From NCBI RefSeq assembly GCF_056712565.1, contig NZ_CM160072.1: a stretch of 64,000 nt of DNA. One strand, given 5' to 3'. Below the pieces are notes generated by a model. That model did no database searches. It saw only the letters and a program-made list of their open reading frames with translations, and was not told where the DNA came from. The translations under genes and the position numbers were made by a program. Shown here piece after piece: positions 53,548 through 53,637 of the stretch. How positions within the stretch are numbered: the first letter of the stretch is position 1; each line of letters begins with the position of its first letter.

Positions 53548-53637
53548 GTTACTTCAACAAATCAATCAACCGTAACAGAGCCACTAATAACTCCAGTACG
53601 GCAATGAGCACGGTTAACTTTTGTGTCAGCGTGTCCA
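53548..53637 (-). CDS. zorO: Type I toxin-like small hydrophobic peptide (ZorO/TisB/DinQ-like), 29 aa
   Basis: Own translation MDTLTQKLTVLIAVLELLVALLRLIDLLK; SD AAGGAG within inverted repeat CTCCTTA-T-TAAGGAG; hairpin 53503-53526 downstream; below ORF-track size cutoff. Confidence 0.55.

Follow-up and report, generated by a model that had tools for sequence, protein, structure and literature searches.

Between yehK and yehL, on the minus strand of a 64,000 nucleotide stretch of DNA (NCBI RefSeq assembly GCF_056712565.1, contig NZ_CM160072.1; hereafter the window), lies a small locus that is almost certainly a single-copy member of the known E. coli family of zor/orz type I toxin–antitoxin loci. 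Family features found here are the 29 amino acid toxin peptide, a divergent Orz RNA, pairing between the two transcripts, a 174-nt 5' UTR with a stem at the ribosome binding site (RBS) and a predicted closed EAP region, and the position between yehK and yehL; no sequence evidence speaks against membership. The presence and position of all of these elements, the identity of the peptide, the complementarity of the RNAs, their predicted folds and the distribution of the locus in the population are established here.

The reading frame belongs to an already known system, ZorO beside a known antitoxin sRNA, and its discovery in the window is a re-discovery. The zorO–orzO pair of E. coli O157:H7 was reportedly described by Fozo in 2010. 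Descriptions of the zor/orz family go back to 2010; it was experimentally dissected between 2014 and 2022, and more than 2,000 E. coli genomes were surveyed for it in 2024 (PMC11264685). An initial annotation of the window, made without database searches, had proposed a zorO-like type I toxin at this place. The toxin family was correctly named, as complete identity to ZorO and a cognate Orz (RF02083) upstream attest, but ‘like’ proved too weak a word for what is a member of the zor/orz family, and the antitoxin gene orz did not appear in that annotation.

The zor reading frame and its leader

The locus is flanked by yehK (on the 53289 side) and yehL (on the 54069 side), the position originally given for it. 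Its toxin gene and the associated minus strand elements are as follows.

53549..53638, minus strand: zor toxin ORF, 29 codons and TAA, encoding MDTLTQKLTVLIAVLELLVALLRLIDLLK (ORF list, published ZorO peptide, UniRef)
53639..53812, minus strand: zor 5' UTR, 174 nt; start G 53812 assigned by homology to the mapped EDL933 start
53644..53658, minus strand: RBS hairpin, with anti-SD CTCCTT 53658-53653, loop AAT and SD AAGGAG 53649-53644 (sequence and MFE folds)
53711..53740, minus strand: EAP region (+73..+102), with GGAGTG 53733-53728 (at +80) and the Orz target +84..+102 at 53729-53711
53785..53812, minus strand: first 28 nt of zor mRNA, processed off in EDL933; in the predicted fold they pair with the EAP and keep it closed
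53820..53847, minus strand: zor promoter, with -35 TTGCAA 53847-53842, 16-nt spacer and -10 TATAAT 53825-53820 (promoter scan, 10/12 matches)
53500..53531, minus strand: zor 3' hairpin, presumed terminator, GGGGGAAUACCGUUUCCCCC then UUUAAUAAA (MFE fold)

The ORF list confirms the 29-codon frame, present in a single copy in the window, with its ATG at 53638 and its TAA at 53551-53549. The initial annotation had quoted the peptide correctly but placed the frame one base away, at 53548-53637. It had also suggested a comparison with Zor-family peptides, and for this we used the synthetic ZorO of full length reported by Otsuka et al. (PMC6669753 section 4.3): the window peptide is identical to the published full-length ZorO of E. 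coli O157:H7 at 29/29 residues. An exact-sequence look-up in UniRef returned “Small toxic protein ZorO” (ZORO_ECO57), and alignment shows that the window zor CDS and the Sakai zorO CDS are identical at the nucleotide level too.

Short hydrophobic frames can be deceptive, and the rival reading is of a chance hydrophobic frame in a non-coding RNA or spacer from which no peptide is made. The frame is indeed very short, PGAP annotates nothing under the 561-nt match in genomes identical to the window there, and an NCBIfam scan of the 29 amino acid peptide found no family even at E <= 10, a null result that is silent on function. The frame is unannotated, however, because NCBIfam holds no family model for the peptide, which accounts for the missing annotation. 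Moreover, a consensus AAGGAG SD lies 5 nt 5' of the zor ATG, the peptide is the very one that, in EDL933, was translated in vitro, localised to the inner membrane and found to be toxic, and in the 87-nt CDS, seven copies of 87–90% overall identity differ by three synonymous changes and just two conservative replacements (T3S, A20S). Identity to a tested toxin, together with this pattern of substitution among the copies, leads us to exclude a chance frame, the probability of which we regard as negligible.

In the EDL933 zorO–orzO experiments, overproduction of ZorO resulted in stasis and depolarisation of the inner membrane. Toxicity on overexpression, rescue by the cognate Orz and the involvement of RNase III have been shown for that pair only; by analogy with this published work, the window allele would be toxic as well.

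The zor promoter has the TTGCAA and TATAAT hexamers that are given for the EDL933 zor/orz promoters (PMC11264685 Table 3). With a start 7 nt past TATAAT, assigned by homology, the UTR measures 174 nt in the window as well as in the two Sakai copies, and 174 nt is also the length published for the zorO 5' UTR (PMC5397157). The leader of about 176 nt originally predicted, near the long zorO leader, was therefore a good estimate.

Within this leader, the SD is part of the inverted repeat CTCCTTA-A-TAAGGAG at +155 to +169 of the zor mRNA. The repeat had been recognised in the initial annotation, albeit with a central T where the actual base is A. Because a 1-base loop is impossible, the hairpin that can fold has 6 bp and a 3-nt loop (CUCCUU-AAU-AAGGAG). 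In MFE folds of both the full-length and the ∆28 RNA, the SD (+164 to +169) pairs with +160 to +155, with a mean P(unpaired) of 0.07, and the hairpin is invariant in 7/7 aligned copies. Structure probing has likewise placed the zorO RBS within a stem (PMC5397157), and the occlusion of the SD proposed at the outset is borne out by both the predicted and the published stem.

Further upstream lies the EAP region, the definition of which and the OrzO footprint come from earlier work (PMC5397157). The region is marked by a GGAGTG/AG motif (PMC11264685); the GAG of the EAP GGAGTG was mutated in a 2024 test of a candidate standby-site element (PMC11264685). In EDL933 the full-length zorO leader hinders translation, whereas in ∆28 zorO the EAP opens and translation rises with the RBS still held in a stem (PMC5397157). 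The MFE fold of the full-length window zor RNA has +1 to +22 paired with +74 to +102, as expected of a closed EAP. When the ∆28 RNA was folded, the EAP did not open in the way published (mean P(unpaired) 0.25 versus 0.33 for the full-length RNA), and our folds thus lend support to the closed state and the SD stem only; the opening step, should it occur in the window zor mRNA, is taken solely from the published probing.

At the other end of the transcript, the zor 3' hairpin is kept in the Sakai copies, in the P copy with one compensatory change (AAAACCGCUU). A simple terminator scan did not call this hairpin because its T run is short.

The Orz antitoxin RNA and its pairing with zor

Upstream of zor and divergent from it lies the antitoxin gene, the arrangement described for zor–orz (PMC3919570).

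53877..53960, plus strand: orz antitoxin sRNA, ~84 nt, divergent and upstream of zor (Rfam RF02083; start by homology to OrzO/OrzP)
53842..53870, plus strand: orz promoter, with -35 TTGCAA 53842-53847, 17-nt spacer and -10 TATAAT 53865-53870 (promoter scan, 10/12 matches)

The Rfam family RF02083 (OrzO-P) matches 53884-53957 on the plus strand with 91.5 bits (gathering score 60, E 4.6e-15), and this is the sole match above gathering score in a scan of 52500-54600. The first 19 nt of Orz form its seed (53877-53895, start G 53877), GUUGGGGCGCCAUGUUGCA, in which the recognition triplet V1 (+9 to +11) reads GCC. The predicted fold of Orz (-26 kcal/mol, z -3.5) comprises a small hairpin at the 5' end and a strong terminator, the stem of which occupies 53932-53952 with a U run after it. 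The terminator scan reported the Orz hairpin on the minus strand only; the plus strand terminator comes from the Rfam alignment and the fold.

Weaker Rfam matches were set aside. Matches to STnc370, ohsC and the Thr and Trp leaders in the Orz terminator region have sub-gathering scores and are put down to chance or to the terminator. Membership of the shoB/ohsC system was rejected accordingly: the ohsC score (RF02495) of 31.6 bits is below the gathering score of 50, and the match overlaps that of Orz, with which it shares a terminator-like part.

The Orz terminator hairpin (53932-53952) has flanking T runs on either strand, that of the minus strand being AAAAAAACCTGCTGGTGAGGCAGGTTCTTTTATTT, and it could also halt minus strand read-through from the yehL side.

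The promoter scan of 53250-54100 found just two sigma-70-like promoters, those of zor and orz. A single palindromic TTGCAA (53842-53847) serves as the -35 of both, read on the minus strand for zor and on the plus strand for orz. The zor/orz papers cited here give TTGCAA for both genes without discussing a single shared site. Both transcripts start GUUGGG, and the 5' ends of the zor and Orz RNAs pair with the same zor segment (+97 to +102 and upstream).

Orz +1 to +19 pairs with zor +84 to +102 at 18/19 positions, in a layout of 12 Watson-Crick pairs, one G.A mismatch and then six pairs that include one G.U. Repression is reported to require a minimum of 15 pairs if continuous, or of 17 if discontinuous, over 18–19 nt (PMC3919570), and the window pairing reaches the published, experimentally derived minimum of 17 discontinuous pairs. 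As the duplex has a G.A mismatch and a G.U wobble towards its 3' end, the efficiency with which the window Orz represses zor is assumed here.

Predicted duplex energies also favour the cognate pairs. The predicted energy of the cognate window duplex is -35.0 kcal/mol, whereas Sakai OrzP and OrzO on the window target give predicted energies of -23.3 and -25.0 kcal/mol, respectively. In the full 3x3 comparison, the predicted energies of the cognate duplexes are -35.0, -36.1 and -32.9 kcal/mol and those of the non-cognate ones without exception range from -22.4 to -29.9 kcal/mol. Cross-repression of the window zor by OrzO is unlikely, as the predicted duplex is ~10 kcal/mol weaker than the cognate one. 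The V1/zor triplets are GAA/UUC for O, ACG/CGU for P and GCC/GGC for the window and Q, such that, across the three types, a change at any of the 3/3 positions is matched by a compensating change in the partner RNA.

Allele type, genomic setting and distribution

To place the window allele among known types, we compared a unit of 415 nt. The window unit is 89.6% identical to Sakai O (554 bits) and 90.6% identical to Sakai P (566 bits), with scores of 554–571 bits against O and P copies in general; the class threshold for locus types is 650 bits (PMC11264685). Copies of a third type were identified from genomes that carry the zor target segment, for which two additional genomes were fetched. These third-type units (O111:H2 12A and CE0007a) are 95.7–96.1% identical to the window unit, with 666–675 bits; they lie at locus position ~1113, closer to yehK than the P copy that accompanies them. 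Their Orz 5' end is GUUGAGAUGCC, their target and V1 (GCC) are as in the window, and the O111:H2 12A peptide carries A20S (ZorQ peptide). Because it has the same target and V1 and scores above 650 bits against the third-type units, we file the window unit as Q-type; in the nomenclature of Shore et al. 2024 (PMC11264685) it is apparently a zorQ/orzQ locus, a type name that we infer from sequence comparison.

Within this type, the window allele is a sub-variant of ExPEC/B2-like strains, characterised by GGGC at Orz +5 to +8, by the ZorO protein and by being the sole copy. The zorQ/orzQ-type units share with it V1 GCC, the zor target UGCAACAUGGCGACUCAAC and the Orz body but have AGAU at Orz +5 to +8 and commonly A20S (A20 in the window), and whereas the window unit is the only copy, the third-type units are the yehK-side partner of a P copy. 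At least two Orz seed variants, with GGGC or AGAU at +5 to +8, accordingly go with one zor target sequence, and each has a mismatch at the same duplex position.

The window unit also combines features of the two EDL933/Sakai pairs. With zorO–orzO (PMC3919570, PMC5397157) it shares the 29 amino acid protein and its CDS, the yehK-proximal flank, the 174-nt UTR, the RBS hairpin, the promoters and a divergent Orz with its seed at the 5' end. It is not the EDL933 zorO/orzO allele in the strict sense, however: besides the 554 bits and 89.6% identity to Sakai O, V1 is GCC in the window against GAA, the zor target is GGCGACU against UUUCGUAC, and the pairing is of the form 12(1)6 against 18 continuous pairs. 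With zorP–orzP the window unit shares the architecture, the 12(1)6 pairing and the yehL-proximal flank, and its promoter region and first half of the UTR are closest to that pair; zorP–orzP differs in the T3S of ZorP and in its V1, ACG, and the Orz bodies of the window and P differ as well (GGCCTAACACCACAGCC against GACGTTAAGTTACTGAT).

Outside the family, other type I systems of E. coli also rely on short, trans-like pairing. Among them, dinQ/agrB likewise consists of a small hydrophobic single-helix toxin with a long, structured and processed 5' UTR and an sRNA-blocked standby-type site. The tisB/istR-1 and shoB/ohsC systems resemble zor/orz in their small hydrophobic single-helix toxin, their long structured 5' UTR that needs processing and their upstream standby-type site blocked by an sRNA, and in both the sRNA is divergent, with 18–21 nt of pairing (PMC11264685). 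All three are other loci, with other regulators (tisB is under LexA).

In O157:H7 Sakai the gap between yehK and yehL measures 1241 nt and contains a tandem pair of units, with orzP/zorP (peptide T3S) towards yehL and orzO/zorO towards yehK. K-12 MG1655 keeps orzP, the zor promoter and ~28 nt of zor leader, followed directly by the yehK 3' flank. There is no zor ORF in this strain, and the absence of the locus from K-12 that had been suggested in the initial annotation is correct for the toxin gene, the retained orphan orzP being the OrzPmg of Shore et al. (PMC11264685). At the K-12 deletion junction (K-12 locus 14290-14597, corresponding to 53300-53790 of the window) the zor leader breaks off at ~+28 (…GGACCAATTT) and continues with the outer end of an ERIC terminal repeat (GAATTATTTAGAG…), and the end of the leader stub coincides almost exactly with the natural ∆28 processing site.

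Several features of the surrounding sequence can be recorded here. Between the 3' end of yehK and the zor terminator there is an ERIC/IRU-type repeat of ~185 nt (53300-53484), with terminal inverted repeats ATAATTCAAGTCGCA and TGCAACTTGAAGTAT; in Sakai its two ends only are present, joined, with ~150 nt missing. Its core presumably corresponds to the ERIC PCR primers (…GTGAATCCCCAGGAGCTTAC…AAGTAAGTGACAGGGGTGAAC…). Compared with K-12 and Sakai, the yehK gene (52973-53289, plus strand) lacks 1 bp near 53151 (GACCC to GA-CC), which splits it into ORFs of 61 and 39 amino acids; it is described as ‘frameshifted’ by RefSeq in identical genomes. Conversely, yehM (55164-57440, plus strand) is an intact 758 amino acid ORF in the window, whereas annotation gives a frameshifted gene in ATCC 11775 and a pseudogene in Sakai. 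The window therefore does not derive from ATCC 11775, even though the two are 100% identical across zor/orz.

A 561-nt stretch of the window covering the locus is 100% identical in many ExPEC/B2-type genomes, including ATCC 11775, S88, APEC O1, IHE3034, UTI89, NU14 and LF82; the window itself is ExPEC/B2-like E. coli. Used as a query against 5426 complete E. coli genomes, it found some match in 5241 and a match with at least 80% coverage in 3392. This is in line with published copy-number statistics, according to which 3% of genomes have no match, ~30% have orz only and 67% have one or two full copies (PMC11264685). The suggestion that the locus is strain-variable holds in that it varies between strains; it is not a rarity, as the 3392 genomes attest. 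The zor target segment is found in 1098 of the 5426 genomes, and the 56-nt Orz 5' segment of the window in 238. Strain 95-3322, for which three places were listed, was considered as a three-copy locus and rejected: its yehK–yehL region has the same layout and length as that of the window, and the extra places lie elsewhere. A search of the literature for zor/orz in uropathogenic strains found nothing specific.

It might be asked whether the window locus is a silent or decaying remnant, its expression or regulation lost in this lineage in the manner of the partial K-12 locus. The adjoining yehK is frameshifted, an ERIC-type repeat has inserted just downstream, one copy is present where many strains have two, and the Orz–zor duplex contains a mismatch and a wobble. 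Pairing in the P allele follows the same 12(1)6 layout, however, and no part of the window locus is broken: the ORF with its SD, the -35/-10 elements of the two promoters, the 174-nt spacing, the EAP motif, the hairpins of the two terminators and the 18/19 pairing are intact. Of the 238 genomes with the 56-nt Orz 5' segment, furthermore, 237 have it in identical form, which argues for conservation and against decay. We consider a remnant to be very improbable, and a complete zor/orz locus to be by far the better reading.

Proposed mechanism and significance

As a complete zor/orz locus, the window unit would work as follows. From the TTGCAA/TATAAT promoter, transcription of the minus strand would produce an mRNA with a 174-nt leader that encodes the 29 amino acid inner-membrane toxin ZorO. 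The primary transcript would be poorly translated, its SD being held in a short hairpin and its first ~22 nt paired with +74 to +102 (EAP). Loss of the first 28 nt would expose the EAP, with its SD-like GGAGUG, a proposed ribosome standby site, and so increase translation. The 5' end of the divergent ~84-nt Orz would pair with the leader at +84 to +102 and block the standby site, and this pairing would in turn trigger cleavage by RNase III, keeping toxin synthesis off. For the window allele, processing, standby function and dependence on RNase III are taken over from EDL933 zorO–orzO and are expected by analogy.

Two further ideas go beyond this scheme, and we think them unlikely. One is that the ExPEC/B2-like sub-variant, the sole copy in 238 of the 5426 genomes, forms a fourth, functionally distinct class of specificity or leakiness. 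Its GGGC at Orz +5 to +8 creates the G.A mismatch and the G.U wobble against a target that is otherwise Q-type, and its Orz might then repress less tightly than that of the O, P or Q pairs. The other, separate from the first, is that the shared TTGCAA makes initiation at the toxin and antitoxin genes mutually exclusive on one DNA molecule.

Reading of the raw sequence alone recovered the zor locus correctly, at a place where automated annotation omits the toxin gene (in the RefSeq genomes identical to the window, there being no NCBIfam model). The details of the allele (its Q-like recognition module, its ZorO sequence and its single copy) are small additions to a well-described family, but their description may help work on cross-talk between Orz RNAs or on the locus in extraintestinal pathogenic strains.
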